A stretch of DNA of 64,000 bases. Source: an uncultured Dehalococcoidia bacterium. Its GTDB lineage: Bacteria > Chloroflexota > Dehalococcoidia > SZUA-161. The DNA lies in the NCBI GenBank assembly GCA_964524995.1, contig CAZGDV010000001.1, forward strand, positions 6,221 to 70,220. Direction: 5' to 3'. This document shows, in pieces, positions 26,197-62,897 of this stretch. Both the position numbers and the translations under genes were made by a program. The first letter of the stretch is position 1; each line of letters begins with the position of its first letter. The notes beneath the pieces are model-generated. The model was given only the letters and a program-made list of their open reading frames with translations, was not told where the DNA came from and made no database searches.

Positions 26197-26937
26197 CTAA
26201 GCTTCCGAGGAACCGATGCGCCCATTCGACCCTTGCGTGCTCTCAAGCTTCGATTGCTCGTCTCGATGGAGCTTCTCTCCTATCGCGTCGATGATGTACT
26301 GCATTCCGATTTGGAGCGGCAAGCCCTTGCTATGCGACGTTCCATTATAGGCGAGGGAGTACCTGTCCAAGACTTCATCTATGACCTCGATGATGCAGTC
26401 AAGCTCGGCCACCTTGACAGGGTACTGCTTGGCAACTTCGATTCCGCTCAGCACGTGGTCTATGTCGACATGGGCTAGTGCCTTGTTTCTCCACACCCTC
26501 AAGTTCTTCGCAGGCAGTCTCGCAAGCAGCTGCCTATCCTTGGCAACGCTTCGCAAAGTCACCCGCATAGGGACTCGTGGCGTGCCACCATTCCGATAGG
26601 CAGGATGCTGGCGCATTCGCCTCTGGAAGGCTCGGCTCTGAAACGCGGGGCGGTTCTCGTCGACGAAGTCGAGTAACCACCACATACTTAAGTCCTTCTT
26701 CCCCTTGGACAACAACCTCGTCAGCCGCATAACTGCCTGAAGGAAGTGTCCATACCATGTCAACTCAAAGAAGGCAGGTGCCGTGTTCAATTCGTGTGCG
26801 TGGGAAGCTCTCGCACTATGCAGGAACTTGCATATGGACCAATGCCAGTAGGCGTTGTTGAGTTCCTCTCTCAGGTGGTCATGGCACTTGACGAACTTGG
26901 CTTCTTCAGCCGTAGGCTCGTAGTCATGTTCAACCAT
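26197..26937 (-). CDS. Abi_2 (AbiD/AbiF-like) / HEPN-motif protein, putative abortive-infection effector
   Basis: 246 aa; Trp/Lys-rich; contains RNKALAH (R-x5-H HEPN-type motif of the RNxxAH kind found in Abi_2 proteins); located in the lower-GC island next to mazEF. Confidence 0.5.
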   Translation of the reverse strand: MVEHDYEPTAEEAKFVKCHDHLREELNNAYWHWSICKFLHSARASHAHELNTAPAFFELTWYGHFLQAVMRLTRLLSKGKKDLSMWWLLDFVDENRPAFQSRAFQRRMRQHPAYRNGGTPRVPMRVTLRSVAKDRQLLARLPAKNLRVWRNKALAHVDIDHVLSGIEVAKQYPVKVAELDCIIEVIDEVLDRYSLAYNGTSHSKGLPLQIGMQYIIDAIGEKLHRDEQSKLESTQGSNGRIGSSEA

Positions 26938-38697: not shown

Positions 38698-39561
38698 CTA
38701 CTTTGCCGGTTCGACCGTATAGAACGTGATTCCGAGCGACCCGGGCCCGGTATGTGCGCCGATCACCGGAGTGAAGTCGGTGATGTAGAACTCCCTGCAG
38801 TCGAACCTCGATATGATCTCGTCCTTCAGCCTCGCTGCCTCCTCCGCTGCGTTGGCATGCATCAAGTTCACGCACAGCGGCCGGCTATCGGCCCTGGCCC
38901 TCAGTATCTCCAGCAGCCGTTGGAGCGCCTTCTTCCGAGTGCGGCACCGCTCGATCAACCGAACATCGTCGGTCGCATCGAGAATCGGCTTTATCTTGAA
39001 CAGCGAACCTGCCCACGCGGCCGCCTTCGGAATCCGTCCCCCCTTCGCCAGGTAGTACAGCGTATCCAGCATGGCAATCGCGTTGACCCTGCTCATCATG
39101 TCGTCCGCCGCCCGCCGCACTTCCGCCAAACTCGCTCCCTCTGCGGCAACCCGCCCGGCAGCCTGCGCTATGAACCCCTGAACCAGAGCGGGGCCACGCG
39201 ACGGGTAGACGTCTATCTCTATATCCGGGGCACGGTCTGCAGCCATCTCCTTCGCCTTCACGGCGGAATCGTAGGCCATCCCCAGGTGCGGTGGAAGGGT
39301 GATACAGAAAACGCCATCGTACTCTTTCCCCAGCTCCACGAACGCATCGAGATACTCTCCGGGCGAAGGGGAGGAACTGGTGGGAAGTTTCTTGGCACCC
39401 TTGAGGAGCTCATAGAACTGGCTGGCCGTTATGTCAACACCATCTCTGTAGGCCCGATCCTCGAATACCAGAAGCAGCGGCAGTACATGCACCTTGTACT
39501 GCTCGACCACTTCCCTGGGCACGCAGGCACTGCTGTCGGTGGTAACCGCGACTCTGCCCAT
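38698..39561 (-). CDS. DegV-family fatty-acid-binding protein (second tandem paralog)
   Basis: 287 aa; VAVTTDSSACVPREVVEQYKVHVLPLLL..; paralogous to the preceding DegV. Confidence 0.85.
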   Translation of the reverse strand: MGRVAVTTDSSACVPREVVEQYKVHVLPLLLVFEDRAYRDGVDITASQFYELLKGAKKLPTSSSPSPGEYLDAFVELGKEYDGVFCITLPPHLGMAYDSAVKAKEMAADRAPDIEIDVYPSRGPALVQGFIAQAAGRVAAEGASLAEVRRAADDMMSRVNAIAMLDTLYYLAKGGRIPKAAAWAGSLFKIKPILDATDDVRLIERCRTRKKALQRLLEILRARADSRPLCVNLMHANAAEEAARLKDEIISRFDCREFYITDFTPVIGAHTGPGSLGITFYTVEPAK

Positions 39562-39828
39562 ATGTCTGATGGCTATACCACTCCACAGACGTGCGGAGAT
39601 CGGGGCAATTCTACCAGCAAACTACTAGCAGTGCAACTATCCGCAGCGCAGTATGATAAACACCCCAAAAAGTACCACCCGAAAAGACCCAAACGGGTGA
39701 TATACAGAAAGGCACGACCACTACATAATACGCCCGTGCGATACCCGCAAGTTGCGGGGGTGCGGTCGGACGGTGGAGTCTGGAGAGACAATCGATCCGA
39801 CGCTATCGCAAGCAAGGAGGGGATGGCA

Positions 39829-40779
39829 ATGCAGAGTCTGATCGGATACAGGAAGGTCATCATAGCCCTTGCGGGCGCAATCCTCGTGGTGTTCGGGGCT
39901 GTCTGGATGACCGCGCTGCTCCCGGCGATGTCTAAGGTCCCAACCGACCTGGATGAGACGGTCGTGCTGGAGGGCACCTACCAGGTGGCTGACTCCCAGA
40001 CCGGCCAGCTCAGCAGCATCCCGGTAACCGTGACGAGAGTCTCCGAAGGCGCCGGCACGGAGGCAGGCGACATCCTGCTGGTTCAGGAGACGATCACAGC
40101 CGCTAACTCAGAAACGGGCGAGGATCTCACGGCGATGTTCGGCTCCACCAACATGCTGGCGATTAACAGGAGCACGCTTGCAATGATGCCCGAAGCGGAG
40201 GGCGCTGACATGGCCCGGCAGGGGCAATGGTCTCCGCCAATAGGCGTCAGCGAAGGCTCCTCATTCGAGATCTGGAATCCCGCCGCCGAGCAGGCCCTTT
40301 TGGCCCAGTGGACCGGGACAGACACCATCGGCGGAGTAGACGTGGCCGTCTTCCAGATCAGTGCTGAGAATCTGGCGCTCGGCCCCGAAGAGGTATCGCT
40401 CCCGACAGGCGGAACGATGACACTCGACAAGTACGTGAGCACCGAAATCACCCTGTGGATCGAACCCGCGACAGGCGTCGTAGTCAACTCACAGAGTGAC
40501 CTCACAGTGGCCTTCGAAGTACCTGGCATTGGCACAATGCCAAGCTTCATCTCCGATGTCAGCTACACGGACGCCACGATATCCTACTATGCCGACAAGG
40601 CCAGTGGCGCTGCAACCCAGCTGTTCCTATTCGGCACCGTTCTCCCGTGGGGATTCATTGGGATCGGTGCCATCCTGATTCTGGTACCTGTCGACCTCAT
40701 TCTGCTCCGCAGGTTCTTCGGCGAGGCTCCGGCCACAACCGACGTTCCTGCACCCAATCCCATATCCATGGACACGTAG
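39829..40779 (+). CDS. membrane protein anchored by N- and C-terminal TM helices (DUF3068-like architecture), hypothetical
   Basis: ATG at 39829 (AAGGAGG 8 nt upstream) gives MQSLIGYRKVIIALAGAILVVFGAVW.. and a C-terminal helix ..LFGTVLPWGFIGIGAILILVPV. The 5' 360 codons of the 675-aa track ORF are antisense to the DegV genes and rejected. Confidence 0.55.
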   Translation: MQSLIGYRKVIIALAGAILVVFGAVWMTALLPAMSKVPTDLDETVVLEGTYQVADSQTGQLSSIPVTVTRVSEGAGTEAGDILLVQETITAANSETGEDLTAMFGSTNMLAINRSTLAMMPEAEGADMARQGQWSPPIGVSEGSSFEIWNPAAEQALLAQWTGTDTIGGVDVAVFQISAENLALGPEEVSLPTGGTMTLDKYVSTEITLWIEPATGVVVNSQSDLTVAFEVPGIGTMPSFISDVSYTDATISYYADKASGAATQLFLFGTVLPWGFIGIGAILILVPVDLILLRRFFGEAPATTDVPAPNPISMDT

Positions 40780-40803: not shown

Positions 40804-40834
40804 AGAGCCCCCCGGCATCGGGGGGCTCTTTCTT
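40804..40834 (+). terminator. intrinsic terminator
   Basis: AGAGCCCCCCG-GCAT-CGGGGGGCUCU perfect 11-bp GC-rich hairpin followed by TTCTT. Confidence 0.6.
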
Positions 40835-40920: not shown

Positions 40921-40950
40921 TTGACTCTCGAAATCTGCCGTTGCTAGAAT
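40921..40950 (+). promoter_or_regulatory. sigma70-like promoter (TTGACT-18-TAGAAT) for the glycyl-radical enzyme gene
   Basis: TTGACT 40921-40926 and TAGAAT 40945-40950, about 110 nt upstream of ATG 41063 (AAAGGAG RBS). Confidence 0.45.
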
Positions 40951-41062: not shown

Positions 41063-43516
41063 ATGGCTACCGTTGACCAGAGGACCCGGAGAGCACAGCA
41101 GATAGCTGACAAGGTCAGATTCAGGACCATGATGGGCCAACGCACCGGCCGCGTCGAGGAGCAGGAGAAGCTCGGCAAGATTTCGGATATCAGGCCCACC
41201 CTCAGGCTGGACGTGGAACGCGCAAGACACGTAACTCAGGCCTACAAGGACTACGAGGGCGAGCCTATATCCATCAGGCGCGCCAGGGCCATGGAGCGCC
41301 ACCTCGACAATATGACCATATTCATCTCAGACTACGATCTAATCGCTGGCAGCTCCTCACGATCACCAGACCACGTTATCTCTTACCCCGAACTCTACTC
41401 CCGCTGGGTCGACAAGGCCATCGAGATGGGCTACAAGGATATGGTCGACGACAACGAGCGCGAGGAGCTCCACGAGATAAACAAGTACTGGTTCCCCAGG
41501 TCTATCCAGGGCAAGGAAAGACAGTACCTCGCCGAGGCCGACAAGCCCTACTGGTCATACATGAACCAGGGCGTCTTCGTCTGGGTCCACGGCGCTCACT
41601 CCGGCCAGGTCCCCAACTACGAGAGGGTATTCCAGGTCGGACTAAAGGGCATCCTCCAGGAGACCAGGGACAAGCTAGCCGAGGTCACCCAGGACAGGGG
41701 CTTTATCAGGGACAACCCGCAGGAGTTCCTCAGGGCCAAGGCATTCCTCGAAGCTGTCATCATCTCTATCGAGGCAGCCCTTCGCTGGGCCCACAGGTTC
41801 TCCGACCTCGCTAAGGCCATGGCCGACGACGAGTCAGACCCCAAGAGGAAGAAGGAGTTGGAGCGCATCTCAGACGCCTGCGCCTGGGTCCCCGAAAACC
41901 CGCCCCGTTCCTTCTTCGAGGCCGTACAGGGCTGGTTCCTCATGTTCCTCCTCGTAAGGGTCCTCGATATCCAGACCAGCGGCATCGGCGACAGGCTCGA
42001 CTACCTGTTCGGCCCCTTCTACAAGAAGGACAAGGAAGCAGGCAAGATCACCCCCGATGAGGCTCGGGAGATCATGGAGTTCACTTTCCTCAAGTTCACC
42101 GACCTCTCGGACTTCAACGCGCCCATCATGGGCAGCGGTGCCCATACTACACCTCGCTACACCACCATCGGCGGCCAAGACAGGCTCGGCAGGGATATCA
42201 CCAACGAGCTCACCTACATCATCATGGACGCCGTCAAGGGTTTGGGTCTCGTAGAGCCCATGATGGTTGTCAGGCTCCACAAGAACACGCCCGACGAGTT
42301 CCTCTACAAGTTCACCGACATCCTCAGAGAGGACGCAGGCCACTATGGCATATTCAACGACGAGTTCATGGTACCCTGGCTCGTGAGCAAGGGTATGCCC
42401 GTCGAGGACGCCAGGAACTGGTGCGTCGAGGGCTGCATGCGCTGGGCCGTCGTCGGCAAGCCCATGGGCCACAGAGGCATCGCAGGCGTAGGCTTCGCAC
42501 TCCCTAAGTGCCTCGAACTCGCACTCACCGGCGGCAAGGACGACAAGTTCTTCGGCGGCAAGCAGGTAGGACCCGAAACCCAGGATCCCAAGACATTCAA
42601 ATCCATCGACGAGGTCATTCAGGCCTACCTCAAGCAGGTCGAGTTCTTCGCCGAGAAGCTCGTCATCTTCTCCAACCTCACAGACGCTGTTGAGGACGAG
42701 TGGCTGCCCCAGCCCTTCAACTCAGCACTCCTCGACGGCTGCATTGAGAACGCCAAGGACGTCAGGCATATCCACTACTGGCACAAGACCAACATGCAGC
42801 CCGTCGGTCAGACCACCGTCGTCAACGCACTCGTCGCCATGAAGAAGCTCATCTTCGAGGACAAGAAGGTCACCATCGACCAGCTCCTGCAGGCGCTCAA
42901 GGACAACTGGGAGGGCCACGAGGAGTTGCGCCAGATGTTCCTCGACGCTCCCAAGTTCGGCAACGACGACGACTACGTTGACCTCTTCGCCAGGGACGTA
43001 CATATCAAGACCTGCCAGGCGTTCCACCAGTTCAAGACTATCTTCGGCTTCAACGTCCAGTCAGACGGCTCCGGCAGCGCCTCATACTTCTCCTTCTCCG
43101 GCCTCACAGGAGCCACACCTGACGGCAGAAAGGACAGGGAGGTCTTCTCCGACGGCACCGTCTCCCCTGCTCCGGGCACGGATGTCAAGGGGCCAACGGC
43201 GGTCCTCAAGTCTGTAGCCAAGATCGACCCGCTTCTGACCTTCAACCACCTGTTCAACCAGAGGTGGATGCCCGAGTTCCTCGAGGGTGACAACAGGTCC
43301 AAGTTCGTCGCGTACCTCCGAACCTTCACCGACCTGGGCATACACCACATCCAGGGCAACGTGATCGACGACGCGGTACTCAGGGACGCGCAGGAGCATC
43401 CCGAGAACTACGAGCGCCTGGTGGTAAGAATCGCGGGCTTCAGCGCCTATTTCGTGGACATGCACAAAGAGGTCCAGGACCAGGTTATCGCCAGAACCAA
43501 GCAAAGACTCGGCTAG
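41063..43516 (+). CDS. glycyl-radical enzyme of the pyruvate-formate-lyase superfamily, substrate unknown
   Basis: 817 aa; C-terminal glycyl-radical motif RLVVRIAGFSAYFVDMHKEVQDQVIARTKQ (compare PFL [24 protein letters not shown]); mid-protein Cys loop NWCVEGCM with the C-V-E triad seen in the glycerol-dehydratase/CutC/HypD/X-succinate-synthase branch. Confidence 0.9.
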   Translation: MATVDQRTRRAQQIADKVRFRTMMGQRTGRVEEQEKLGKISDIRPTLRLDVERARHVTQAYKDYEGEPISIRRARAMERHLDNMTIFISDYDLIAGSSSRSPDHVISYPELYSRWVDKAIEMGYKDMVDDNEREELHEINKYWFPRSIQGKERQYLAEADKPYWSYMNQGVFVWVHGAHSGQVPNYERVFQVGLKGILQETRDKLAEVTQDRGFIRDNPQEFLRAKAFLEAVIISIEAALRWAHRFSDLAKAMADDESDPKRKKELERISDACAWVPENPPRSFFEAVQGWFLMFLLVRVLDIQTSGIGDRLDYLFGPFYKKDKEAGKITPDEAREIMEFTFLKFTDLSDFNAPIMGSGAHTTPRYTTIGGQDRLGRDITNELTYIIMDAVKGLGLVEPMMVVRLHKNTPDEFLYKFTDILREDAGHYGIFNDEFMVPWLVSKGMPVEDARNWCVEGCMRWAVVGKPMGHRGIAGVGFALPKCLELALTGGKDDKFFGGKQVGPETQDPKTFKSIDEVIQAYLKQVEFFAEKLVIFSNLTDAVEDEWLPQPFNSALLDGCIENAKDVRHIHYWHKTNMQPVGQTTVVNALVAMKKLIFEDKKVTIDQLLQALKDNWEGHEELRQMFLDAPKFGNDDDYVDLFARDVHIKTCQAFHQFKTIFGFNVQSDGSGSASYFSFSGLTGATPDGRKDREVFSDGTVSPAPGTDVKGPTAVLKSVAKIDPLLTFNHLFNQRWMPEFLEGDNRSKFVAYLRTFTDLGIHHIQGNVIDDAVLRDAQEHPENYERLVVRIAGFSAYFVDMHKEVQDQVIARTKQRLG

Positions 43517-43594: not shown

Positions 43595-43670
43595 TATTAT
43601 CAGCTTGTCAGGTTAGCTCGAAGGCCCTTGCGCGTCTGCCATCTCCTCTTTCCGGAGTGAGCACAGAGGC

Positions 43671-43699
43671 TTGACAGGCCTCGATTTCTGTGTTAAAAG
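43671..43699 (+). promoter_or_regulatory. possible promoter (TTGACA-17-TAAAAG) with ~350-nt leader to the surface-protein gene
   Basis: TTGACA 43671-43676, 17-nt spacer, TAAAAG 43694-43699. Confidence 0.3.
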
Positions 43700-44057: not shown

Positions 44058-45023
44058 ATGAAGAAGCTGGTAACTATCTTGATCGTCGTTGCGCTGGCGG
44101 CCACGGGTCTGTTCATAGCCGCAGCGCCAGCCGCAGCTGACTCGCTTCTCGACTCAGTTGAAGTCGGAACCCCATCCAGCGAGTCCACTCACGGCATAGT
44201 AGAGCAGCCCACGGGTGACTGGGGGCCGATAGAGACCGCGACGCACGGCGGCTCCTACGGGGACATTGACAACGGCGGAGCTCCAGATTACACGTCTGGA
44301 GACAACGCGTGCCGCTGCATATGGGGGTATGACGAGGACCCCACTGGGAACATTGGACAGGATGCCACCTTCACGATGAGTACGGGCTCCGGCATGACCG
44401 CCACCCGCCTCGTGATCCGAGTCTTGGATGGAGGCAGCGACGACTCCTTCGACCTCAAGGTGAATGGTTCAACCGAGCTGTCATATACAGACCAGTATAC
44501 TGCTGAGACTTGGGTAACCCATGACATCGACATCTCCTCCGGGGCCTATACGGGTACTCTCAACATAAGCCTGACAGCTACTGCCGCAGCCGGTCCATAC
44601 TTCAATGACTATGGACAGGTAGCTGTTGACTGGGCCGAGCTCTATGGCGAGGAGTCACCTCCACCGACACCGGAAGGCAACGAGACCGGTGGTTGCTTCA
44701 TCGCGAGTGCGGCCTATGGCTCATACTTCGAACCCCAGGTTGACACGCTCCGGTCATTCAGAGACGGGTTCCTGCAAACAGATGCGGCCGGAACCGGCAT
44801 TGTGTCGGCTTATTATGCGCTCAGCCCACCGATAGCCGACTTCATTGACGCCAATCCAGTTCTCAAGGCACCGGTAAGGGCCGCTCTGGCACCGGCGGTT
44901 GCGCTGAGTGACACAGCCGTAGCCACCAGCACGTCTGCGAAGGCGGCAGTAGCCGGCGCAGCAGCCCTTGCTGCTCTCGCCGCGGCAGCGTGGCTCCGGA
45001 GGCGCATGGTTCAGAGCCGTTAA
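44058..45023 (+). CDS. secreted protein with conserved ~110-aa C-terminal module (GGCFIASAAYGS...LRSFRDGFL, Ala-rich helix, RRR tail)
   Basis: ATG 44058 with GGGAGGGGG RBS; signal peptide MKKLVTILIVVALAATGLFIAAAPAAA; C-terminal module near-identical to that of the next gene and ending in a hydrophobic helix plus WLRRRM. Confidence 0.7.
   Translation: MKKLVTILIVVALAATGLFIAAAPAAADSLLDSVEVGTPSSESTHGIVEQPTGDWGPIETATHGGSYGDIDNGGAPDYTSGDNACRCIWGYDEDPTGNIGQDATFTMSTGSGMTATRLVIRVLDGGSDDSFDLKVNGSTELSYTDQYTAETWVTHDIDISSGAYTGTLNISLTATAAAGPYFNDYGQVAVDWAELYGEESPPPTPEGNETGGCFIASAAYGSYFEPQVDTLRSFRDGFLQTDAAGTGIVSAYYALSPPIADFIDANPVLKAPVRAALAPAVALSDTAVATSTSAKAAVAGAAALAALAAAAWLRRRMVQSR
44687..44851 (+). repeat. 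copy 1 of ~165-bp near-identical direct repeat (encodes the shared C-terminal module)
   Basis: About 95 nt identical then scattered mismatches versus 46621-46785 (constant offset 1934 nt). Confidence 0.7.
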
Positions 45024-45126: not shown

Positions 45127-46974
45127 ATGAGACACATCACGGCCAAAGCTATAGTGTGCTTGGCTATAATCGCTTCTGTCGTACCAGTGGTGACTGCGGG
45201 CGGTCTCTCACTAGCGGTTGCTGGGGCTACCACCACTGCAGGATCAATGGCAGTATCAGTACCCGGCGGCCCTGACTATGCACCGGCGAATGTACAGCTA
45301 GCGAAGATCGACCCGGGACTGACCTCGCCGAGCGGCGACTATCGATGGTTGGATGTCGCAGACAACGAGTACGCCGCATCCTTCCACTCCACCTACGACT
45401 ACTCGCAGGCCAGCGTTCAGGTTACCTATGAGACCCAGGGCACATCGCTACAGGGTACACTCGTCGCGACCAATCTCAAGCCCAACTTCGCATATCAACT
45501 CAAGCTTACAGGTACTCCCGACACACAAGACAACGAGAGGATTGGCCTGTCCGGAAGATGGTGGGAAGAGACCTGGGATGGCTCCCAGTGGAGCAATGGG
45601 CATAACCTGAACAACAAGGGCGACGGCTCGTCGCCGAATCCGAACGATGATCTGTACTTCAGCCGAAAGGATGTCCAGGAGTCATCCAGCCCAACGGGGA
45701 AGCTATATCGATACACCGGCTACATGCCGATTGATTACTTCATCACCAACGAGTCCGGCAGTGCCTCCCTGAGCTTCGAGGCCGACAGTTGCTACCATGT
45801 CCTCTGGAAGACCTCGCAGCGCGCGCCCAATGGGAACGATGGGCCTCTCAAGATGTGGGCCTTCGATCCCGATCCGCTATCGACCGCATATGATTTCGAC
45901 TACCCCGAGTCAAGCGCAACCATCTTCGGTGAGTGGGAACGGCTTCCCGTTGGTGGGGTCTATCTCCGACCGGGTAGCTACAGTTGCATGATCACGCTTA
46001 CCGAGGAATCGTTCCACGGCAACGGCCTCGCCGGAGGATGGGCCAGCGCCATGGGTGCCACGATATCATTCGACATTGAGCCAACCTACACCCTGTCCGT
46101 CAGCGCATCTCCCGTGGGCAGCGGGACCACCTCCCCAAGTCCCGGCGCCCACGGCTGCGCGCCCAACCAGGTTTTCCTTCTGGAGGCATATCCAGCCTCC
46201 GGTTACGAGTTCTCCAGTTGGGGCGGCAATGTCGCCCAGCCGTATTCCAGTTCGACACGCATCACGATGACAGCGGACGAAACAGTCACAGCGTACTTCC
46301 AGCCCGCCGGAACCACCGACCCGCCGGATGCCCCCTCCAACCTGGCCGCCACTGCCGAAGCCGACGGCACGGTCACGCTCTCTTGGCAGGACAACTCCAA
46401 TGACGAACTCGGATTCGCTATTGATCGCAAGACAGCAACGGGATACTTCCACGAAATCGATCGAGTTGCGGCCAACACAACTACCTATCACGATCAGGGT
46501 GTTACAGGCGGACGAACCTATGTCTACAGGGTGAAAGCCTGGAAGTACGTGGAAGGCCCCCTAGGTCCCACTGAAGTCTCTTCATCATCCAACCAGGTAT
46601 CGGTTACTACCTCATCGGATGGCGGTTGCTTCATCGCGAGTGCGGCCTATGGCTCATACTTCGAACCCCAGGTTGACACGCTCCGGTCATTCAGAGACGG
46701 GTTCCTCCAGACAGATGCGGCTGGAACCGGCATTGTGTCGGCTTACTATGAAATCAGCCCACCCATAGCCGACTTCATCGACGCACACCCGTCACTCAAA
46801 CCAATAGTCAAAGCTGCGCTGGCCCCTGCTGTAGTAGTCAGCGACACAGCTGTCGACGGTAGCATAGCTCTCAAAGCAGTGATAGGTAGCGTAGCATTGT
46901 TTGTAGCGTTTGTCTCCACGGTTTGGGTCCGCAGGCGTATCGCCTTGAGTAAACAGCCTCACCGGTTCTCCTGA
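45127..46974 (+). CDS. secreted multidomain surface protein (InlB-B-repeat-like domain, fibronectin type III domain) with the same C-terminal module
   Basis: ATG 45127 with GGAAGGGAG RBS; signal peptide MRHITAKAIVCLAIIASVVPVVTAGG. YTLSVSASPVGSGT..GYEFSSWGGNV..VTAYF bacterial Ig-like repeat; FN3 (PDAPSNLAATAEADGTVTLSWQDN...YVYRVKAW). C-terminal GGCFIASAAYGS... module + helix + WVRRRI. Confidence 0.75.
   Translation: MRHITAKAIVCLAIIASVVPVVTAGGLSLAVAGATTTAGSMAVSVPGGPDYAPANVQLAKIDPGLTSPSGDYRWLDVADNEYAASFHSTYDYSQASVQVTYETQGTSLQGTLVATNLKPNFAYQLKLTGTPDTQDNERIGLSGRWWEETWDGSQWSNGHNLNNKGDGSSPNPNDDLYFSRKDVQESSSPTGKLYRYTGYMPIDYFITNESGSASLSFEADSCYHVLWKTSQRAPNGNDGPLKMWAFDPDPLSTAYDFDYPESSATIFGEWERLPVGGVYLRPGSYSCMITLTEESFHGNGLAGGWASAMGATISFDIEPTYTLSVSASPVGSGTTSPSPGAHGCAPNQVFLLEAYPASGYEFSSWGGNVAQPYSSSTRITMTADETVTAYFQPAGTTDPPDAPSNLAATAEADGTVTLSWQDNSNDELGFAIDRKTATGYFHEIDRVAANTTTYHDQGVTGGRTYVYRVKAWKYVEGPLGPTEVSSSSNQVSVTTSSDGGCFIASAAYGSYFEPQVDTLRSFRDGFLQTDAAGTGIVSAYYEISPPIADFIDAHPSLKPIVKAALAPAVVVSDTAVDGSIALKAVIGSVALFVAFVSTVWVRRRIALSKQPHRFS
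46621..46785 (+). repeat. copy 2 of ~165-bp near-identical direct repeat
   Basis: See copy 1 at 44687-44851. Confidence 0.7.
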
Positions 46975-52713: not shown

Positions 52714-53505
52714 CTACGTCCCAACGGAACCGCTACGCACGGACTCGACAATCCGGGGCAGTATGTCGCCCGTCATGCCCTGTATGAGGTAGTCCGATAT
52801 GCCTTCCGCGGTGAGGGCGGTTGGCTCGGCATTGACCTCGATCACCGTCACGGCCGAGCCACTCAGCTTGGCCACCCTGGGTAGCCCGGCGAAAGGGTAG
52901 ACAACCGCTGTTGTCCCACAGATGAGCATGAGGTCGCACATAGAGGCCTGCTTCTCGGCAGCCTGCATCACATCCAGAGGTATGGGCTCCTTGAAATGAA
53001 CCACGTCCAGCTTCATCGCTTCTCCACATCTGCATATGGGCGGAGGCTCCTCCAGTGCAACCTCGTCAAGGCCAAACCTCGCGCCACATGAGAGGCACCT
53101 TACCTTGTGGACGCTGCCGTGATATTCTATGACGCTCCGGTTGCCGGCCTTTCGGTGCAAGCCATCTATGTTCTGCGTAATGAGACACTTCAGGTAACCA
53201 GCGCTCTCCAGCTCGGCCAGGGCATTGTGTCCCGCGTTGGGCTCAGCCTTCCTGACCTCCACGTAGAACGCGCCGTGTGTCCCTTCCTTGCCGGACACCT
53301 CCCCCCAATAGGCCCTGGGGTCACGCAGGAAGAGATCGTACCTCTCGTATGCTTTCGCCTCGGCGTCCCTGCTGGTGGTCCAAATCCCCTTCGGGCCCCT
53401 GAAGTCTGGGATGCCCGACTCGGTGGACATGCCCGCACCGGTGAGCGCAATGGCATGACGGCTCCTCATGATATCCTCGGCAGCCCGCTCAATGAGTTCG
53501 GTCAT
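52714..53505 (-). CDS. cobB: NAD-dependent protein deacylase (sirtuin, CobB-like)
   Basis: 263 aa; AIALTGAGMSTESGIPDFRGPKG, catalytic His region, zinc ribbon (C..C...C..C). Confidence 0.85.
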   Translation of the reverse strand: MTELIERAAEDIMRSRHAIALTGAGMSTESGIPDFRGPKGIWTTSRDAEAKAYERYDLFLRDPRAYWGEVSGKEGTHGAFYVEVRKAEPNAGHNALAELESAGYLKCLITQNIDGLHRKAGNRSVIEYHGSVHKVRCLSCGARFGLDEVALEEPPPICRCGEAMKLDVVHFKEPIPLDVMQAAEKQASMCDLMLICGTTAVVYPFAGLPRVAKLSGSAVTVIEVNAEPTALTAEGISDYLIQGMTGDILPRIVESVRSGSVGT

Positions 53506-53535
53506 CCCACGCTATGCCTCATTCCTTCCCGTAGC

Positions 53536-54486
53536 TCACAGCCCTCTCAGGTACTCAGGTCGGAGCGATCCGGGGTCCCTGTTCAACAGCACTTCATCGA
53601 TCTCGCCCAGCATCCTCGCCTTGTCCGTGGGCAGGAACCCGCGTACGGACAGGTAGTTGGACGCGTGCATTGAACTTAAGAAGCACCTCGTAAAGCGGCA
53701 CTGCTGAACAAGTTCCCTGAGTTCACCAAGGAACTCGAAAGGGGACAGAAGAGTGAATCTGCCGTTTTGCCAGTCGTTGTAGAGGGGAGTACCGGGCACG
53801 AGCGTCAGGGTCAGCGCCCCGGTGTACTCTGTGTCGATCTCGGAAAGGACACGTGCCGTCTCGCTCACATGTCTTGCGCTCCCGTCGTCACCCCCGAGAC
53901 CCAGGATCACGGTCAGTGACAGCACCATCCCGGCATCTTTGGCCTTCCTGCCTGCCTCGACCAGTTGGTCGTGGGTGACTCCCTTGCCAACCTTTTCAAG
54001 CACCTGATCGTCGCCGCTCTCAATCCCCGTGTAGAGAATGCCCAGACCCAGGCGGCGCAACTCCCGCAGTTCGTCAGTGCTCCTTCTCAGTATATCCTGC
54101 GGTGTCGCATAGCTACCAATCCTGTGCAGCCCGGGCAGCTTCTCATTCAAGTGCCCGAGGACTTCCGCGAGCCTGTCGTACGGATAGACCAGAGCATCCC
54201 CATCCTGAAGGAAGACCCTTCGCCCATCCCAGCTCTGCGCTATAGCGTACACTATGTCGTCGACGTCGCCCAACCGAACGCCATGCCTCACGTACATAGC
54301 CAGCGCGTCTATCTCGTGCTTTACGTCCTCCACATCACGGACCCTGAGGGCCATACCATAGAAACCGCAGAAGGTACACGTGTTGTTCGAGCAGCCACTG
54401 GTCAGGGGAAGAAAGTAGCTCCTCCGCTCGCTGGGAGGGCGGAATATGTCCGGGCGCTTGAATCCGTCAGCACCTCGCCCCATCAC
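53536..54486 (-). CDS. radical SAM protein with Elp3-type CX4CX2C cluster motif (no GNAT domain)
   Basis: 316 aa; LPLTSGCSNNTCTFCGF (C-x4-C-x2-C as in Elp3-type enzymes), downstream TIM-barrel-like radical-SAM core (LYTGIESGDD); 30 nt upstream of the sirtuin gene on the same strand. Confidence 0.7.
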   Translation of the reverse strand: MMGRGADGFKRPDIFRPPSERRSYFLPLTSGCSNNTCTFCGFYGMALRVRDVEDVKHEIDALAMYVRHGVRLGDVDDIVYAIAQSWDGRRVFLQDGDALVYPYDRLAEVLGHLNEKLPGLHRIGSYATPQDILRRSTDELRELRRLGLGILYTGIESGDDQVLEKVGKGVTHDQLVEAGRKAKDAGMVLSLTVILGLGGDDGSARHVSETARVLSEIDTEYTGALTLTLVPGTPLYNDWQNGRFTLLSPFEFLGELRELVQQCRFTRCFLSSMHASNYLSVRGFLPTDKARMLGEIDEVLLNRDPGSLRPEYLRGL

Positions 54487-54521
54487 CTCTCCTGTTCGGG
54501 TGATTCGCCGGGCAGCGCCAA

Positions 54522-55358
54522 CTACGCGGGTAGTGGGAGCGCAATCGTGATCCTTATGCGACTGCCTTCACAGACAGCGTAGGAAAGCCTCTCAGGAGCC
54601 TCCAAGCTGCCTATGACCTCTACAGGGGTGAGGGTCCGAATCTCGTCTCCCCTGCTCAAGGGGGTAGGGCCGAGGAAGATGCAGACTGCTTTCGCCGCAG
54701 GCCAATAGCAGATGTCACCGAGCCTGACGACCTCCTGCAGATTCGCCGTTTCCACCTTGGCAGTAACCGGGAAGTACACCTCTTTACCCCACACACTCAC
54801 CCGTGATTCCAAAGGCAAGGCCTTCAGCACAGCAGCGGCCGCTTCACAGCGATTGAAGCAGCCGCGAACCGTCGTTCTTCCCAGAGTGACCTCCACGTCG
54901 GTCAGCACGTCGGTCTGTCTACTTATCCAGTCGAGATGCTCTGAACGTGCCTTGACGATCGGTAGCGCTATGACCTCCGGGATGACGCTGCTGGGTATGT
55001 CCTCTACGATATGCAGTATGTCTCCGAACAGGTCCGCCCTCGTTCTCGCCAGCAGGAAGCTCTCTTCGACACCATGGACACCTTCTCCCTGCCGGACCAC
55101 CGACCTTATCTTCGGCACGATGTTGACCATGGATGCCCTTCTTGAGTCCACCAGTCTCTCGGCGATACGATGAGCTGCCTCGTTCCCAACCACCGTGATA
55201 ACCACGACTACGTGACTGCGATCGACGTCTCCACAATCGCTCCCACCGGATGGCTCGAAGAGCGCGTCAACACCGCTCGATTCCTCCTCACCACCCAGCC
55301 AGGGCTCCGCCATTCTGTCAATGGCTAAGCGCTCACCAACGCTGATACGTCTGCTCAT
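54522..55358 (-). CDS. fusion of CutA1-like domain and cyclophilin-like (DUF3830-type) domain
   Basis: N-terminal region HVVVVITVVGNEAAHRIAERLV...IPEVIALPIVKARSEHLDWI resembles CutA1; C-terminal 120 aa paralogous to the 47888-48268 protein. Confidence 0.55.
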   Translation of the reverse strand: MSRRISVGERLAIDRMAEPWLGGEEESSGVDALFEPSGGSDCGDVDRSHVVVVITVVGNEAAHRIAERLVDSRRASMVNIVPKIRSVVRQGEGVHGVEESFLLARTRADLFGDILHIVEDIPSSVIPEVIALPIVKARSEHLDWISRQTDVLTDVEVTLGRTTVRGCFNRCEAAAAVLKALPLESRVSVWGKEVYFPVTAKVETANLQEVVRLGDICYWPAAKAVCIFLGPTPLSRGDEIRTLTPVEVIGSLEAPERLSYAVCEGSRIRITIALPLPA

Positions 55359-55815
55359 CGATCATCCCTGGATCGGCGCGCCACAGGGGAAGCGACAATA
55401 CCACCGTTCGTAGGCAGATGCTGTTGACCTGGGGTCTCTGATTCACGCATGTCAGCAGTAGCTAGGACCGGGGTCTAAAAAATCTGAAACGTGGCCCGTG
55501 TGTCCGTGCGCCAGGCCAGATTGACTACCACCCCGGCATACGTCCACGAGCCTGTTGGAGTATGATACCATGAGTGCATCTGAGTCCGCAATACACCTTG
55601 GCGGTAACATCACACACGTTCGCTGACCTTGACAAATTCAGACAAATCGTGTAAGAAAGAAGGCACCCTCCACATCGCAGCCGACACAACCCGCCGCTTC
55701 CGCCGCAGAATATCAACGCGCCACCGAAACAGCTATGAGCTACCCTGCGAGCATTCTGTGGGCCGGGGGAGTGTAGTTGGGTTATGGCCGAACCTACACC
55801 AGGATCCAAGCCACT

Positions 55816-56886: not shown

Positions 56887-57917
56887 GCGGTCGTACTCTT
56901 GTTGCGCTGTGGAAGGCGAATGTGCCTCACTGGATCTGGATCGGCGCTCCGGCGTGGATCGGCGGTCTTCTCATGGGGCTGGAGGGCCAGACCGTGGAAT
57001 GGCCTCATGTCCTGCTATTCGTTCTGGCAGTGTTGACCATACAGGCCGCAGCCGAGTTCGCCAACACCTACACCGACAGACACGAGGACCAGCTATATGG
57101 GCCAACCAACACCCTGGTCACCGGCGAGCTCGATGCCGGTCTGGCCAAGAAGGCTCTCATCGCGGAGAATGTGGTTGCAGCCGCGCTGCTGATCGCCCTC
57201 CTTGCCATCACACTCAACTACGCCCTGGTGCTGGTAATGCTCGCTGGCTGGTTCTTCAGTGTAGCGTACTCGGTCCCTCCGCTCAGGTTGAAGGAGACCT
57301 TGTTGGCGCCGCTATCCCACGCCATAGCCTTCGCACTTCTGCCGGTAGCAGGATGGCTCATCGTGCAGCCGTCACTCACCGCCCAGAACGGGTTCATATT
57401 GGGTTTCGCCGGCGTCCTCTTCCTCCACAGCTTCGCCTTGGGCATCACCCTGAAGTTCAGGAAGACCCTGCTTGCTCTGACCTCCGGCCTGGTGCGCCTG
57501 GAGCCGGGTGCCAGCCTGTACAACATGGCTACCGTCGGCTTCAACCTCCGGTTCAGAAACGCCATGACACTGGAGGAGGTAACAGGCCTGGGGGCTTTCG
57601 TACTGGTGCCGATTCTGTGGAGTCTGGGCGTTTTCAACACAACTCTGTCGGTCGGGTTGCTGGTGCTTCCGCTGACCTGTACAGCCCTGGCGGTCATCTT
57701 GAGGGAGAAGGACCCCGTGGCGAACAGCTCCAGGTACAAGGTTCTCATGACGCTCGCCTGGGGTCTCATAGTCGTGCTGCTATTCGGCGTTGGAATGGCC
57801 AACCACGTGCACTACGGCTATGCCCTGATGGCTTCAATCGTCGTGCTTGCCGGTTTCCCTCTACTCGTGCGAATCGTCCATCCCTGGGGCTCCAAGTCCC
57901 TTAGTAGCCGGTGCTGA
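56883..57917 (+). CDS. UbiA-superfamily prenyltransferase
   Basis: Start ATG 56883 overlaps the fni stop (ATGA; translational coupling); 8-9 TM helices; first Asp-rich motif NTYTDRHEDQ (NxxxDxxxD). Confidence 0.75.
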   Translation: MSGRTLVALWKANVPHWIWIGAPAWIGGLLMGLEGQTVEWPHVLLFVLAVLTIQAAAEFANTYTDRHEDQLYGPTNTLVTGELDAGLAKKALIAENVVAAALLIALLAITLNYALVLVMLAGWFFSVAYSVPPLRLKETLLAPLSHAIAFALLPVAGWLIVQPSLTAQNGFILGFAGVLFLHSFALGITLKFRKTLLALTSGLVRLEPGASLYNMATVGFNLRFRNAMTLEEVTGLGAFVLVPILWSLGVFNTTLSVGLLVLPLTCTALAVILREKDPVANSSRYKVLMTLAWGLIVVLLFGVGMANHVHYGYALMASIVVLAGFPLLVRIVHPWGSKSLSSRC

Positions 57918-57963
57918 TGGACTCATAGTGTATCTGAAATGGAGCAGCTGCAGTCGAAAAGCT

Positions 57964-59064
57964 ATGAACGATGAATCCCTAAGACCGAGGCCAACTGAAC
58001 ACCGGGCGACTCACCGTCTGGATGGCCCGATCACCATCGACAGCGTGGAGCGTTACGCACACGGCCTGAGATGGAAGCTGGGGATCAGTACAAACCCTTG
58101 CGTCCAAGCGAGAAGAAACACACGATGCGTCTACTGTGGCTTCCGTAACCACCACAACCCCGTTCCACCCGACGATGTCGGCCACGTCCTCCGCAGAGCG
58201 CTCGAGAGCCGTGATCTGCGCGCAGTGCGTAGACTGGAGCTGTACGTGTCGGGCAGCTTCTTCGACGAGCATGAGGTGTCCGAGCAGTCCACGGATTTGA
58301 TCGCTCAACTTATCGCGGGCAGCACCGTGAATGAAGTCGTACTGGAATCAAGGCCGGAGTTCGTCACTGAAGACCGACTAAGGGCACTCGCACAGCGCTT
58401 GGACCCCAGCCGGGTAATAGTCGCCGTCGGCGTGGAGACAATGGACGACGAGCTTCGCTCCAGGCTGTCCAAGAACTTCAGTACAGACGATGTAGTCAGA
58501 AGTATCGAGGCCGTTGCCCAGGCCGGCATGGGATTCCAGGCCTACCTGCTCCTGAACCCGCCCCTCATCAACGACGACCGGTCTGCGATAGTCGACGTGT
58601 TGACCAGCTCCAGGAGAATCCTGCGTCTCACGTCGAGGCTTCAGTGCAAGACCATCCTGGCTGTCCAACCCTACTTCGTCGCCAAGGAGTCGGCGATAGC
58701 AGAGCGCTTGTCCGCGGAGCCGCCTCCCAGGCCTCCATGGCTGTACACTATTGCGCTGGTTCTGGGGCTGTTGGATGCGATCAGGGGAGAGTGGGTACCG
58801 CCTTTCCAAATCATCCTCGGTAATGAAGTAGACAACGTCGATACCCTGCGCATTCCGGCGAACTACGCCGCCGATGGTGGTGTGTGCGATTGCAGCGATG
58901 GAATCCGGCAACTACTGCGAGAAGTAAATATCTCGCGTGATACAATGCGCGAGCGAGTCCAGCAAGTGCTGGCGGCACCCTGCGAGTGCAGGGAGGCATG
59001 GGAACAGCAGATCGTTGCGGGTGTGTGTGAGTTTGCTTCCACTATACCCGACACGCCCTGGTAG
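57964..59064 (+). CDS. radical SAM-like protein with unusual CX8CX2C spacing
   Basis: ATG 57964 (avoids overlap with the UbiA gene); NPCVQARRNTRCVYCGF cluster motif; downstream LYVSGSFFDE / VGVETMDDELR segments consistent with a radical-SAM TIM barrel; Cys-rich C-terminus (CDCSDG, CECREAWEQQIVAGVCEF). Confidence 0.6.
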   Translation: MNDESLRPRPTEHRATHRLDGPITIDSVERYAHGLRWKLGISTNPCVQARRNTRCVYCGFRNHHNPVPPDDVGHVLRRALESRDLRAVRRLELYVSGSFFDEHEVSEQSTDLIAQLIAGSTVNEVVLESRPEFVTEDRLRALAQRLDPSRVIVAVGVETMDDELRSRLSKNFSTDDVVRSIEAVAQAGMGFQAYLLLNPPLINDDRSAIVDVLTSSRRILRLTSRLQCKTILAVQPYFVAKESAIAERLSAEPPPRPPWLYTIALVLGLLDAIRGEWVPPFQIILGNEVDNVDTLRIPANYAADGGVCDCSDGIRQLLREVNISRDTMRERVQQVLAAPCECREAWEQQIVAGVCEFASTIPDTPW

Positions 59065-59131
59065 CCAACGAATCCACCGGCATGCTTCTGGTTAGGCGGC
59101 CAGCTGCCAGCGTGGACCGAGAGGAGCCCTA

Positions 59132-60316: not shown

Positions 60317-61492
60317 ATGACGACTCCTTACGAAGACTATCTGCAGCAACTCGAACTCGACTTCGAAAGGCCCGACTGTCTCTCGAACAAGGTGAAGCTG
60401 TGCTCCTATCTGGTCTGCTGCGGGGCCACGGTGGAACTGGGCGGCTACGAACGCGACGACAAAGACCTGAGAACAGGCAACTCCGGCCTGCAACTCCTGG
60501 TCGGCCATCCGCAGCTGCGAGCTCTCATCCCCACAGCACACATGAACGACGAGAACCCGGTAATGATCAGGGGCAATGCGGGCGGGCAAGCGGTGCTAGA
60601 GTATGCTGGTATGTCATTCTTCCCCGTCGAAGTGCTCCCCGAGCAGAATACAGGCAACACCACCATCTCCGCCGAGTTCGACACCCTGATCACCGCCATA
60701 CCCAACGAGCCCTACGGTGTACGTAGCTGCCACTTCCACAAGCTGCAGAGTCCCTGCGCCTTCTGCGTACTCACCGAGAAGAGCATGCCCCTGGGCCCGC
60801 CCGACCTCGTCGCTGCCTACGACAAGGTCACAGCCGGATCGGGACGTGCCCCCCAGGTCCTGCTGACCGGCGGTACCGAGCCCAGCGCCGACCGAGGTCT
60901 CGCCAAGTATCTTCCATATGTGGTGGAACTACGGCGCGAGTTCCCCGATGCCCGAGTCGCCATCGAGGCCTCTCCCCCAGAGGACCCCTCGTCCCTCGAT
61001 CCACTGATCGAAGCAGGCATGGACACCTTCGCCGCGAATATCGAGTTCTACTCCGAGCAGACCAGGCGCGACCTGCTTCCGGCGAAATCGAGCATACCCC
61101 TCCACGCATACAGCAACGCCCTCAGCTACTGCAACAGGGCTGGCGTCAGGACATTCTCAGCAGTCATAGCCGGTCCGGAGGGCGATGCCGACACAATCCG
61201 CGCCGTCGAGTTCCTCGCGGACGCCGGAACTCCGACCAACTTCCTGTGCCTGCGCCCCTTCCCTGGTGCCGTACTTGCTGACAGCCCCAGGGTCAACCCC
61301 TCGTGGTACCTGCGCATGACATACGAGGCCAACGCCGTCATGGCACGCCACGGCCTGCTCGACGACCTTGCTGGGACGGCCGGGTGTGGCTCCTGCGGGG
61401 CCTGCTCCATGGAGATGAATCTATACCGGCTCGCTCAGCATCAGGATACCGCCAACGTGGCGGAGGAATGCCCTTGGGTAGCCACATCCTGA
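60317..61492 (+). CDS. radical SAM-like protein, second CX8CX2C member, with C-terminal CxxCxxC cluster
   Basis: 391 aa; RSCHFHKLQSPCAFCVL then LLTGGTEP (GGEP-type SAM-binding glycine motif), C-terminal GTAGCGSCGACS. Confidence 0.5.
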   Translation: MTTPYEDYLQQLELDFERPDCLSNKVKLCSYLVCCGATVELGGYERDDKDLRTGNSGLQLLVGHPQLRALIPTAHMNDENPVMIRGNAGGQAVLEYAGMSFFPVEVLPEQNTGNTTISAEFDTLITAIPNEPYGVRSCHFHKLQSPCAFCVLTEKSMPLGPPDLVAAYDKVTAGSGRAPQVLLTGGTEPSADRGLAKYLPYVVELRREFPDARVAIEASPPEDPSSLDPLIEAGMDTFAANIEFYSEQTRRDLLPAKSSIPLHAYSNALSYCNRAGVRTFSAVIAGPEGDADTIRAVEFLADAGTPTNFLCLRPFPGAVLADSPRVNPSWYLRMTYEANAVMARHGLLDDLAGTAGCGSCGACSMEMNLYRLAQHQDTANVAEECPWVATS

Positions 61493-61562
61493 TTGTGTGC
61501 TTTGATCGTATCACTTCGTGCTAATCCGGTCTCCCGCCACGGCGACATTCCGGAGTCAGAAG

Positions 61563-62897
61563 ATGAAGACCCTGGTCCTTGTGAATCCAGCACATCAGCT
61601 CAAGCCGAATCTGGCAACCATTCTCAGGCTGCCCTCGGCGAGCCTGGCCTACCTGGCTGCCCTTACACCGGCAGACTGGGAGATCAAGCTCATCGACGAG
61701 AACACCGAACCCCTGACATACGACGGTGCCGACCTGGTAGCCATCACGTCATACACGTGTAACGCTCCGAGAGGCTACGAGATATCTCAAGAGTACAGGC
61801 GTCGTGGTGTCAAGACCGTCATGGGCGGCGTCCACGTCTCACTCATGTCCTCCGAGGCTTCCGAATATGTGGATTCGGTGGCGATTGGAGAGGGTGAGTC
61901 AATCTGGGCACAGGTGATATCGGACTTCGAAAACGGTTCCCTCAAGCCCGTCTACCAGGGTGACCGCCTGTCCCTTGACAGCCTGCCCAGGCCCAACAGG
62001 ACCATCTACGGCAAGCGCTATCGTCTGGCCTCAGTCGAGACATCGCGCGGCTGCCCTAATGACTGCGAGTTCTGCTCCGTCACAACCTTCAACGGCCATA
62101 CCTACAGGCAGAGGCCCGTGGACGAAGTCCTCGCCGAACTCGAGGGCCTGACCGGCAAGTATTTCTTTTTCTCCGACGACAACATACTCGGCTACGGCCA
62201 CAAAGCAGAAGACAGGGCAATTCGCCTTTTCCGTGGCATGATCGACCGTGGGCTCAAGAAGCGATGGGCCGCGTATGTCGGCATCGACTTCGTCAACAAC
62301 CCCGAGGTAGTCGAGTACGCCAGGAAGGCCGGTTGCCTCGGGGTCTTCATCGGCTTCGAGTCCATCGATGAGGAGTCGCTGAAGGGCATGCACAAGGTGA
62401 GGAACCTGCGCATGGGTGTGGCCAGATACAAAGACGTCGTCAAGATACTGCATGGTCACGGAATAGGCGTGTTGGGCTCCTTCGTTCTCGGCAGCGACAC
62501 CGACGACAAGGACGTATTCGACAGGACCACCGAATTCGTTCTCGATTCGAGGATGGACGCCGCACAGTTCTCGATCCTGAACCCTTTCCCGGGAACGAGG
62601 CTATACGACCGGCTCATGCGCGAAGGCAGGCTCCTGCGAACGGACTACCCCTCTGACTGGAAGCACTATGACTTCACGGAGGCCCTTTTCCAACCCAGGA
62701 ACATGACTCCGGAGGAGCTGGAGGAGGGTGTGGCACGCATGTACAAGAACACCACGTCCCGCGCCACATCCGCGAAACGAGCACTTGTCTCCGCTATACA
62801 GACGCGCAGTCCCTTCGGTGCCGTCGTTGCATATCTCGGAAACCGGGGTGCGGGCGACTTATGGGAGAAGAGGTACGCGGGCAAGATCGGGTCCTGA
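61563..62897 (+). CDS. cobalamin-binding class B radical SAM enzyme (likely C-methyltransferase or cyclase type)
   Basis: ATG 61563 with GGAG RBS gives MKTLVLVNPA.. B12-binding Rossmann-like N-domain; canonical radical-SAM SRGCPNDCEFC; overall HpnP/BchE/GenK-like architecture. Confidence 0.8.
   Translation: MKTLVLVNPAHQLKPNLATILRLPSASLAYLAALTPADWEIKLIDENTEPLTYDGADLVAITSYTCNAPRGYEISQEYRRRGVKTVMGGVHVSLMSSEASEYVDSVAIGEGESIWAQVISDFENGSLKPVYQGDRLSLDSLPRPNRTIYGKRYRLASVETSRGCPNDCEFCSVTTFNGHTYRQRPVDEVLAELEGLTGKYFFFSDDNILGYGHKAEDRAIRLFRGMIDRGLKKRWAAYVGIDFVNNPEVVEYARKAGCLGVFIGFESIDEESLKGMHKVRNLRMGVARYKDVVKILHGHGIGVLGSFVLGSDTDDKDVFDRTTEFVLDSRMDAAQFSILNPFPGTRLYDRLMREGRLLRTDYPSDWKHYDFTEALFQPRNMTPEELEEGVARMYKNTTSRATSAKRALVSAIQTRSPFGAVVAYLGNRGAGDLWEKRYAGKIGS

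Follow-up and report, generated by a model that had tools for sequence, protein, structure and literature searches.

Dehalococcoidia rank with the most abundant bacteria in anoxic sediments, both marine and subsurface. In metagenome studies, their glycyl-radical enzymes (GREs) are routinely named assA, bssA or pflD on the grounds of similarity alone. Some GREs in the genomes of Guaymas Basin group with no characterised enzyme (PMC6258724). As for the characterised ones, all six C-O eliminases, CutC, the C-S lyases and three isomerases keep a Cys-x-Glu motif, in which the Glu is hydrogen-bonded to the substrate (2026 review, PMC13450708). In the X-succinate synthases (XSS), one carboxylate of fumarate is bound by an Arg residue (Arg508 in benzylsuccinate synthase, BSS, and Arg492 in MASS) and the other by the backbone of the loop that carries the catalytic Cys, the Cys loop (PMC12358834). 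Here we analysed a stretch of 64,000 nucleotides from an uncultured Dehalococcoidia bacterium (contig CAZGDV010000001.1), referred to as the 64-kb window, which contains a GRE gene at 41063..43516 on the + strand, starting with ATG and coding for 817 aa with PFL-like and Gly_radical domains. The encoded protein, hereafter the window GRE, belongs to an uncharacterised clade, named here C-M-R, that is typical of Dehalococcoidia/Chloroflexota from anoxic sediments and that represents a probable new functional variant inside a known superfamily. Its real interest lies in the combination of a Cys-x-Arg loop, an Arg of the XSS type and the bbs-like gene context of its relatives.

A sequence-only reading of this DNA had proposed that the gene codes for a GRE, and this identity is corroborated by Pfam (PFL-like PF02901, E 2e-157; Gly_radical PF01228, E 8e-25) and by an AlphaFold2 model built on 33 relatives (pLDDT 88.6, pTM 0.90), with which Foldseek retrieved from the PDB GREs only (~50 chains, TM 0.84-0.88, identity <=32%). 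The TM values are tied across all GRE classes, such that the fold does not separate one class from another. The two strings quoted in that reading, RIAGFSAYF and NWCVEGCM, are indeed present at residues 789-797 and 452-459, respectively; however, the assignment to a "CVE-motif branch" drawn from the second one did not survive the inspection of the loop, as described below.

The Cys-loop hairpin comprises residues 453-463 (W-C454-V-E-G-C458-M-R460-W-A-V; 42419..42451, +). In HMMER alignments, GDH (glycerol dehydratase), IseG, the propanediol dehydratase 9RCO, HypD, PflD and PD place their G-C-[VT]-E opposite G457-C458-M459-R460, in a register that runs without gaps over more than 40 residues in both directions and with which a MAFFT alignment including a TutD fragment agrees, C458 being aligned with C433 of GDH, C466 of IseG and C493 of TutD. 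Among 113 full-length relatives of the window GRE, the set used for all conservation counts, C458 is kept in 109 and C454 in 20, and the remaining positions of the loop are kept in 94 (E456), 91 (M459) and 95 (R460) of them; a Glu at the position of R460 was found in 0/113, and relatives at 72% identity carry NWAVEDCMRH in this place. In the model, the strands 453-457 and 460-463 leave residues 458-459 at the tip of the hairpin, mirrored by the Gly-loop hairpin (residues 787-797, VVRIAGFSAYF; 43421..43453, +), which was delimited by the Pfam Gly_radical domain and the model and whose strands 787-790 and 793-796 leave the tip at 791-792. G792 (43436..43438, +), the predicted glycyl-radical site, is kept in 113/113 and lies in R789-I-A-G792-F-S-A-Y, the counterpart of the RVxG[FY]xA motif of the superfamily; a TPDGR motif is also present in the window GRE. 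Because the alignments, the conservation and the position at the hairpin tip agree, the predicted thiyl-radical Cys is C458 (42434..42436, +) and the loop is of the Cys-x-Arg kind. On the alignments and the model, the "CVE" string is therefore a coincidence and not the catalytic Cys motif, Cys-x-Glu being missing from the window GRE rather than carried by it.

The positions surrounding C458 also differ from those of the eliminases. R460 occupies the position of their catalytic Glu (Cys+2), GDH Asp447 aligns with Gly472, and GDH His164 aligns with Gln182 or falls on a gap. R471 (Cys+13; 42473..42475, +), kept in 112/113 relatives, aligns with the fumarate-binding Arg508 of BSS. In the MAFFT alignment the Cys+13 column contains Arg in the window GRE, Trp in AAD, and His, beside Asp447, in GDH; by residue numbering, Trp495 of PAD is Cys482+13 and thus corresponds to the same column as R471. 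Since Cys+13 differs among GRE classes at substrate contacts, it appears to be a substrate-determining position, and the conservation of both R471 and R460 at substrate positions points therefore to an anionic substrate, probably a dicarboxylate.

Comparison with the characterised GREs did not assign the protein to any of their classes. The window GRE scored below every NCBIfam equivalog cut-off, the best match being the HpsG-type model (535 vs 1000), together with HypD (479 vs 1100), HpfG (451 vs 1000) and CutC (441 vs 1050); it also remained below the cut-offs of the subfamily model TIGR01774 (510 vs 678) and of TIGR01255 for pyruvate formate-lyase (88 vs 994). Identity to any characterised GRE was at most ~33%, to the glycerol dehydratase of C. 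butyricum, and the best match in a representative library was 42% identical. The sequence-only reading had held the protein to be unlike glycerol and hydroxyproline dehydratases, and these scores and identities, added to the low identity to the solved structures, support this view; tight clustering with a characterised clade, which would have counted against it, was not found. Against full-length PDB sequences the bit scores were 454 for GDH, 427 for IseG, 376 for TutD, 354 for AAD, 350 for MasD and 246 for HPAD, whereas with the C-terminal third only, MasD was the top PDB match (184.6 vs 182.6 bits for GDH), and both MasD and TutD scored as well as GDH. The Cys-Cys pair of pyruvate formate-lyase is absent, as the loop reads G457-C458, and the trait of the aminoacyl radical enzymes, a change of the Gly to Ala, Ser or Thr, is absent as well, as G792 is present. 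In an incomplete literature collection we found no paper on the C-M-R loop variant or on its linkage to CoA-transferases.

With the best overall match, the C. butyricum glycerol dehydratase (DhaB1, 1R8W), the window GRE shares the fold and length (TM 0.86), the Gly loop, the TPDGR motif and the Cys at the hairpin tip. In comparison with the GRE 1,2-eliminases (PD, HypD, CutC, IslA/IseG, HpsG), Arg replaces the Glu and the equivalents of Asp447 and His164 are missing. As Cys+2 is an Arg and the Cys-x-Glu of the eliminases and isomerases (GD, PD, HypD, CutC, IslA, HpsG, HplG, YbiW and PflD) is missing, the window GRE would not be a canonical eliminase. AAD (7E7L) and PAD/PhdB are also without Cys-x-Glu, both act on carboxylates, and AAD needs no accessory subunit, but they have Trp at Cys+13 where the window GRE has Arg, their similarity to it is low and their gene context is another.

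The likeness to the XSS was assessed with TutD and MasD fragments recovered from PDB alignments, which served as the XSS references; a tblastn search against plasmids for a BssA reference found no XSS. The TutD fragment reads NVLC-M-S-P-G-I-H-G-R-R-K-T-Q-K-T-R, with Cys493-Met494 and with Arg508 at Cys+15, and in the MAFFT alignment its two extra residues are an insertion such that R508 falls on R471. Thus, the XSS (TutD/BssA 4PKC, 5BWD; MasD 9O8U) and the window GRE have in common the Cys-Met at the loop tip, the lack of the Glu and the aligned Arg. However, the Cys loop of the window GRE is two residues shorter and has an extra Arg at Cys+2, the identity is ~30%, and the scores place the protein outside the XSS group.

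The gene context of the relatives was compared in a clade set of 16 loci with a GRE at least 45% identical and a C-[ML]-R type loop or a close variant. BbsEF and BbsG of the bbs operon process benzylsuccinate, and the pair of CoA-transferases plus an acyl-CoA dehydrogenase (ACAD) located 3' of the GREs of the relatives parallels bbsEFG, whereas it is absent in the window. In L008 (73% identical to the window GRE) and L009/L088 (72%), the GRE is followed immediately by two family-III CoA-transferases and then an ACAD; L089 has the same arrangement after two tandem GREs (68 and 72%), and in L015 (48%) two CoA-transferases follow the GRE with no ACAD match in the locus. L087 (79%) contains four to five CoA-transferases, an ACAD, an NMO-type reductase, an SDR and a second GRE, and L090 (53%) contains thiolases, SCP2, OFOR, an acetyl-CoA-hydrolase-type transferase and one family-III CoA-transferase. 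The GRE of L092 (49%) is followed by an enoyl-CoA hydratase (ECH) and a canonical activase, and that of L011 (48%) by a canonical activase and two ACADs, while in L091 (52%) and L173 (67%) it is isolated among housekeeping or glycosyltransferase genes, like the window copy. The gap from the GRE to the next gene is 30-160 nt in the relatives (30 nt between the GRE and the CoA-transferase in L088). The best NCBIfam matches, all below cut-off, were succinate-glutarate and succinyl-CoA:mesaconate CoA-transferases for the CoA-transferases, and pimeloyl- and glutaryl-CoA dehydrogenases for the ACAD.

When compared with the other GRE loci, CoA_transf_3 was present in 6/16 clade loci vs 1/71 (Fisher p = 1e-4), ECH in 4/16 vs 1/71 (p = 0.004) and ACAD in 5/16 vs 4/71 (p = 0.009), although these p-values are inflated, as several of the clade loci are phylogenetically related and Dehalococcoidia are rich in acyl-CoA genes. 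The context of the clade is acyl-CoA metabolism, whereas eliminases are found with aldehyde dehydrogenase, microcompartment or sulfite-reduction genes. Also in the clade set, a gammaproteobacterial bin (L174; ENA ERZ24842471, 171-kb contig, 1128-12363) has a GRE of 51% identity with a C-M-R-W loop, located between a GntR-FCD regulator and an AbgT-family anion transporter, and a complete FrdABCD fumarate reductase operon lies 4.7 kb from this GRE; this context fits a fumarate- or dicarboxylate-linked role, as a single case.

The open reading frame (ORF) in the window is a full-length, intact GRE. The closest genome matches of the protein are found in Dehalococcoidia metagenome-assembled genomes (MAGs), at 82, 73 and 72% identity, and the exact protein is also encoded, with unchanged neighbours, on contigs from ENA, JGI and Logan that reach 275 kb in length; in fact, the 2454-nt gene is identical in nucleotide sequence across the six loci retrieved from these assemblies. 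It is under purifying selection, with a dN/dS of 0.06 against L007 and of 0.16 against L088 (dS was saturated against two further relatives). The G+C content of the window is 59.7%, and that of third codon positions (GC3) is 0.84 in the GRE gene vs 0.65-0.78 in the neighbouring genes. A strong terminator-like hairpin (40804..40829, +; 11 pairs, 9 of them G-C, with a T-rich tail) ends the upstream PorA-like gene, and it is followed by a sigma-70-like promoter candidate (40921..40950, +), TTGACT and TAGAAT separated by 18 nt and with a TG, located 113 nt 5' of the ATG; the candidate matches 10/12 positions and is a consensus match only. A weak terminator-like hairpin (43666..43682, +) lies 150 nt 3' of the stop codon. 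From the intact ORF, the dN/dS values, the promoter-like site and the upstream terminator, we infer a functional gene that constitutes its own transcription unit and would be transcribed alone.

To search the window for the activase, 19 bona fide GRE activases that adjoin GREs in other loci were turned into a profile, which recovers activases in ~55 of those loci. Nothing significant was found in the 64 kb (41 kb upstream and 20 kb downstream of the gene), the best match being an EFR1-type ferredoxin at 8912-9937 (19.5 bits); moreover, no family-III CoA-transferase, ACAD, ECH, thiolase or microcompartment gene was found in the window. These profile and Pfam scans sustain the observation of the sequence-only reading that neither an activase nor pathway partners are nearby. 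The orphan state holds then for the window, but it is less unusual than that reading implied: a canonical activase is adjacent in 2/16 clade loci (L011 and L092), and since the other 14 are without one, the separation of GRE and activase is the norm in this clade and is unsurprising here. As canonical activases adjoin the members in L011 and L092, ordinary activases would serve the clade. A scan of JGI metagenomes with the clade-adjacent activases gave, among the matches listed (80 loci), none from the source samples Ga0180431, Ga0180432 and Ga0309772.

Two radical SAM proteins were considered as alternative activases and rejected. The radical SAM/SPASM protein beside the GRE of L087 is of the TIGR04311 metalloenzyme-maturase type. 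The other is encoded in the window at 53536..54486 (-), has 316 aa and a Cx5Cx2C motif, and came into consideration for a 36%-identical homologue located 2.4 kb from the GRE of L174; it gave no score against the activase profile, has more than 7000 highly conserved homologues, and the trio that it forms with a cyclophilin-like protein and SIR2 recurs, without a nearby GRE, in the complete Dehalococcoidia genome CP070819.1 (L175). In all, four radical-SAM genes are found in the window, all of kinds other than GRE activase, the other three being RaSEA-like (57847..59064, +), a variant (60317..61492, +) and B12-binding (61518..62897, +).

Taken together, we propose that the window GRE is a functional, non-eliminase, carboxylate-binding enzyme activated in trans, a reading to which we assign a probability of about 0.5. 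The radical on G792 would be generated by a canonical radical-SAM activase whose gene lies in another part of the genome, and R471, probably also R460, would hold one or more carboxylates of the substrate. A 1,2-elimination of a diol, an amino-alcohol or a sulfonate would not be expected, because the general-base Glu is replaced by R460 and the equivalents of Asp447 and His164 are absent. The likeliest chemistry would be instead the formation of a C-C bond on fumarate, or a reaction on a succinate-type acid, either its decarboxylation or the cleavage of a C-C bond, and the product would then be activated by CoA transfer from succinyl-CoA, dehydrogenated and beta-oxidised; this chemistry and the CoA transfer are suggested by the CoA-transferase pair and the ACAD, ECH, thiolase and SDR genes of the relatives, which recall the bbs pathway. 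In the window genome the gene would have been split from the module and from the activase, and it would be transcribed alone from its own promoter. The enzyme probably catalyses an undescribed anaerobic reaction on a carboxylic acid; that this reaction resembles fumarate addition in particular is a tentative suggestion. Equally tentative is the wider idea that the C-M-R clade constitutes a new functional class of single-subunit GREs in which an XSS-like Arg and a second Arg, at the place of the eliminase Glu, bind fumarate or another dicarboxylate, a C-C bond is made or broken, and a bbsEFG-like module is fed.

Several observations weigh against this proposal, in addition to the inflated enrichment values mentioned above. 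Overall similarity favours GDH over the XSS (454 bits vs 376 for TutD and 350 for MasD). The fumarate contact Gln707 of BSS and Glu690 of MASS has S670 as its counterpart here, a position set by the distance to the TPDGR motif that these proteins share; 112/113 relatives carry Ser or Thr in this place. No small Cys-rich ORFs of the beta/gamma type flank the window GRE, and the placement of R460 and R471 in the pocket is taken from sequence alignment. Among the relatives there are subclades with a changed Cys loop (C-A-S-Y in P0029-P0046), and the substrates of paralogues may differ. Finally, activase, CoA-transferase and ACAD are absent over 41 kb upstream and 20 kb downstream, and because the window holds no genes of the module, the link to a pathway is drawn wholly from relatives of 48-79% identity.

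A decarboxylase acting on a carboxylic acid, similar to the phenylacetate and arylacetate decarboxylases without Cys-x-Glu, would account for part of these features: PAD has Cys482-x-Gln484 (PMC13450708), AAD has G-C-V-L-H without the Glu, the Cys+13 residue contacts the substrate in these enzymes (Trp495 in PAD, Trp in AAD), and two Arg residues would suit a carboxylate. We consider it rather unlikely, as Cys+13 is here Arg and not Trp, the PDB matches to AAD (354 bits) and HPAD (246 bits) belong to the weakest, and the known decarboxylase loci are without the CoA-transferase and ACAD modules found in the C-M-R clade. The Cys-Met pair, the Arg aligned with R508 of BSS, the bbsEFG-like neighbours of the relatives and the MasD match of the C-terminal third (184.6 bits) could indicate a bona fide XSS, that is, a fumarate-adding enzyme of the AssA/BssA type, the more so as relatives originate from places rich in hydrocarbons (a tar biofilm, the Guaymas Basin and vents) and assA/bssA-like genes were reported in Dehalococcoidia MAGs (PMC7673041). 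Nevertheless, genes for beta, gamma and delta accessory subunits are not adjacent here or in the relatives, the Gln707/Glu690 position is Ser or Thr, and TutD and MasD, at ~30% identity, score below GDH and IseG, which makes this assignment improbable.

Slightly less credit still is due to a 1,2-eliminase of the glycerol- or hydroxyproline-dehydratase type that would use WC454-V-E456, despite the literal C-V-E at residues 454-456, the first rank of the C. butyricum glycerol dehydratase in Foldseek and in the PDB scores (454 bits), and the HpsG-type model as best NCBIfam match (535 bits). The scores fall far under the equivalog cut-offs (535/1000, 479/1100, 441/1050), every alignment sets the reference Cys on C458 with Arg at Cys+2, Asp447 and His164 find Gly472 and Gln or a gap, and C454, kept in 20/113 relatives and replaced in the NWAVEDCMRH loop of those at 72% identity, lies away from the hairpin tip where the model puts C458. 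It is highly improbable that the gene is a decaying or non-catalytic relic, stranded without its activase after a rearrangement. The lack of an activase or pathway gene in 64 kb and the loss of the catalytic Cys in some relatives (Ser in P0047-P0049, Gly in P0037) could be read in this sense, but the ORF is intact, G792, C458, R471 and TPDGR are present, dN/dS is 0.06-0.16, codon usage is strongly biased (GC3 0.84), a promoter-like site of its own precedes the gene, the sequence is identical in six independent assemblies, and the 14/16 clade loci without an adjacent activase include intact tandem paralogues.

On the evidence above, one widespread GRE group of Dehalococcoidia, the C-M-R clade, fits no characterised class: it is without Cys-x-Glu and without accessory subunits, but it has retained the fumarate-type Arg, and its link to dicarboxylyl-CoA metabolism is specific to the clade. 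If its chemistry is new, this would mean a new reaction type for GREs, possibly an accessory-subunit-free hydroalkylase of biocatalytic interest, as well as an unrecognised anaerobic route for the activation of hydrocarbons or organic acids in sediment Dehalococcoidia, and it would change what is inferred about the turnover of carbon by these bacteria. Concrete targets for experiments are offered by L088 and L089, with their tandem paralogues and CoA-transferases, and by L011 and L092, in which the clade member is linked to an activase.

Some relatives of the window GRE deserve mention in their own right. Three proteins of 835-847 aa (P0047, P0048 and P0049), from a set of relatives 57-65% identical, have Ser in the column of the catalytic Cys (VEDSLRH/Q/L) and an unusual Gly loop that reads AGSSAYF; in P0037, of the same set, this column contains Gly. 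These four proteins may be paralogues without catalytic activity, or they may be GREs that relay the radical in another way. In a Chloroflexia MAG (L019; contig_52389, 1554-12364) there are four tandem GRE paralogues with a G-C-V-Y loop, Arg-Arg at Cys+12/+13 and one activase. They represent a neighbouring, uncharacterised clade, ~40% identical to the window GRE and also without Cys-x-Glu, and MAGs of Smithella and Peptococcaceae (L016, L018) have Cys loops that resemble theirs.

With regard to the surroundings of the gene, the membrane protein upstream and the two surface proteins downstream were as described in the sequence-only reading. The former is a PorA-like (PF11271) protein of 316 aa, the called gene directly upstream of the GRE (39829..40779, +), which also matches the PgfA model below cut-off (114 vs 160 bits); a 675-aa ORF at 38752-40779 (+) is an over-extension of it that overlaps an opposite-strand DegV gene. 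Farther on the 5' side, the minus strand encodes DNA polymerase X, SecA, PRPP synthetase, a P-loop kinase, PlsY and two DegV genes. The downstream genes code for CFI-box-CTERM surface proteins (44058..45023 and 45127..46974) and are followed by an alpha/beta hydrolase, a cyclophilin-like protein and an SMR transporter, and then, on the minus strand, by an FGGY kinase, a 2-hydroxyacid dehydrogenase, DUF362, SIR2, a radical SAM protein and a CutA1/cyclophilin-like protein. The last three form the conserved trio at 52714-55358 (-), with CutA1/cyclophilin-like at 54522-55358, radical SAM at 53536-54486 and SIR2 at 52714-53505.

Other regions of the window contain further gene groups. The co-directional genes at 55777-62897 (+) encode an FMN-dependent dehydrogenase-like protein, a UbiA prenyltransferase, the RaSEA-like radical SAM protein, a PLP (PALP) enzyme, and the variant and B12-binding radical SAM proteins, a cluster that looks like an uncharacterised pathway of lipid or cofactor modification. 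At 17080-21264 (-) a 1394-aa fusion of two BcrAD/BadFG ATPase modules and DUF2229 resembles acyl-CoA dehydratase activases; no dehydratase partner was identified nearby. The gene at 26197-26937 (-) codes for an AbiU2-type HEPN protein, a candidate for abortive-infection defence, and it is adjoined by two ORFs with no family match (24327-24956 and 25201-26055). Finally, at 8912-11603 (-) an EFR1-family flavodoxin/ferredoxin fusion (8912-9937) adjoins a 584-aa multihaem cytochrome-like protein (9849-11603), and an amine-oxidase-type flavoprotein is encoded beside the fusion at 7410-8915.

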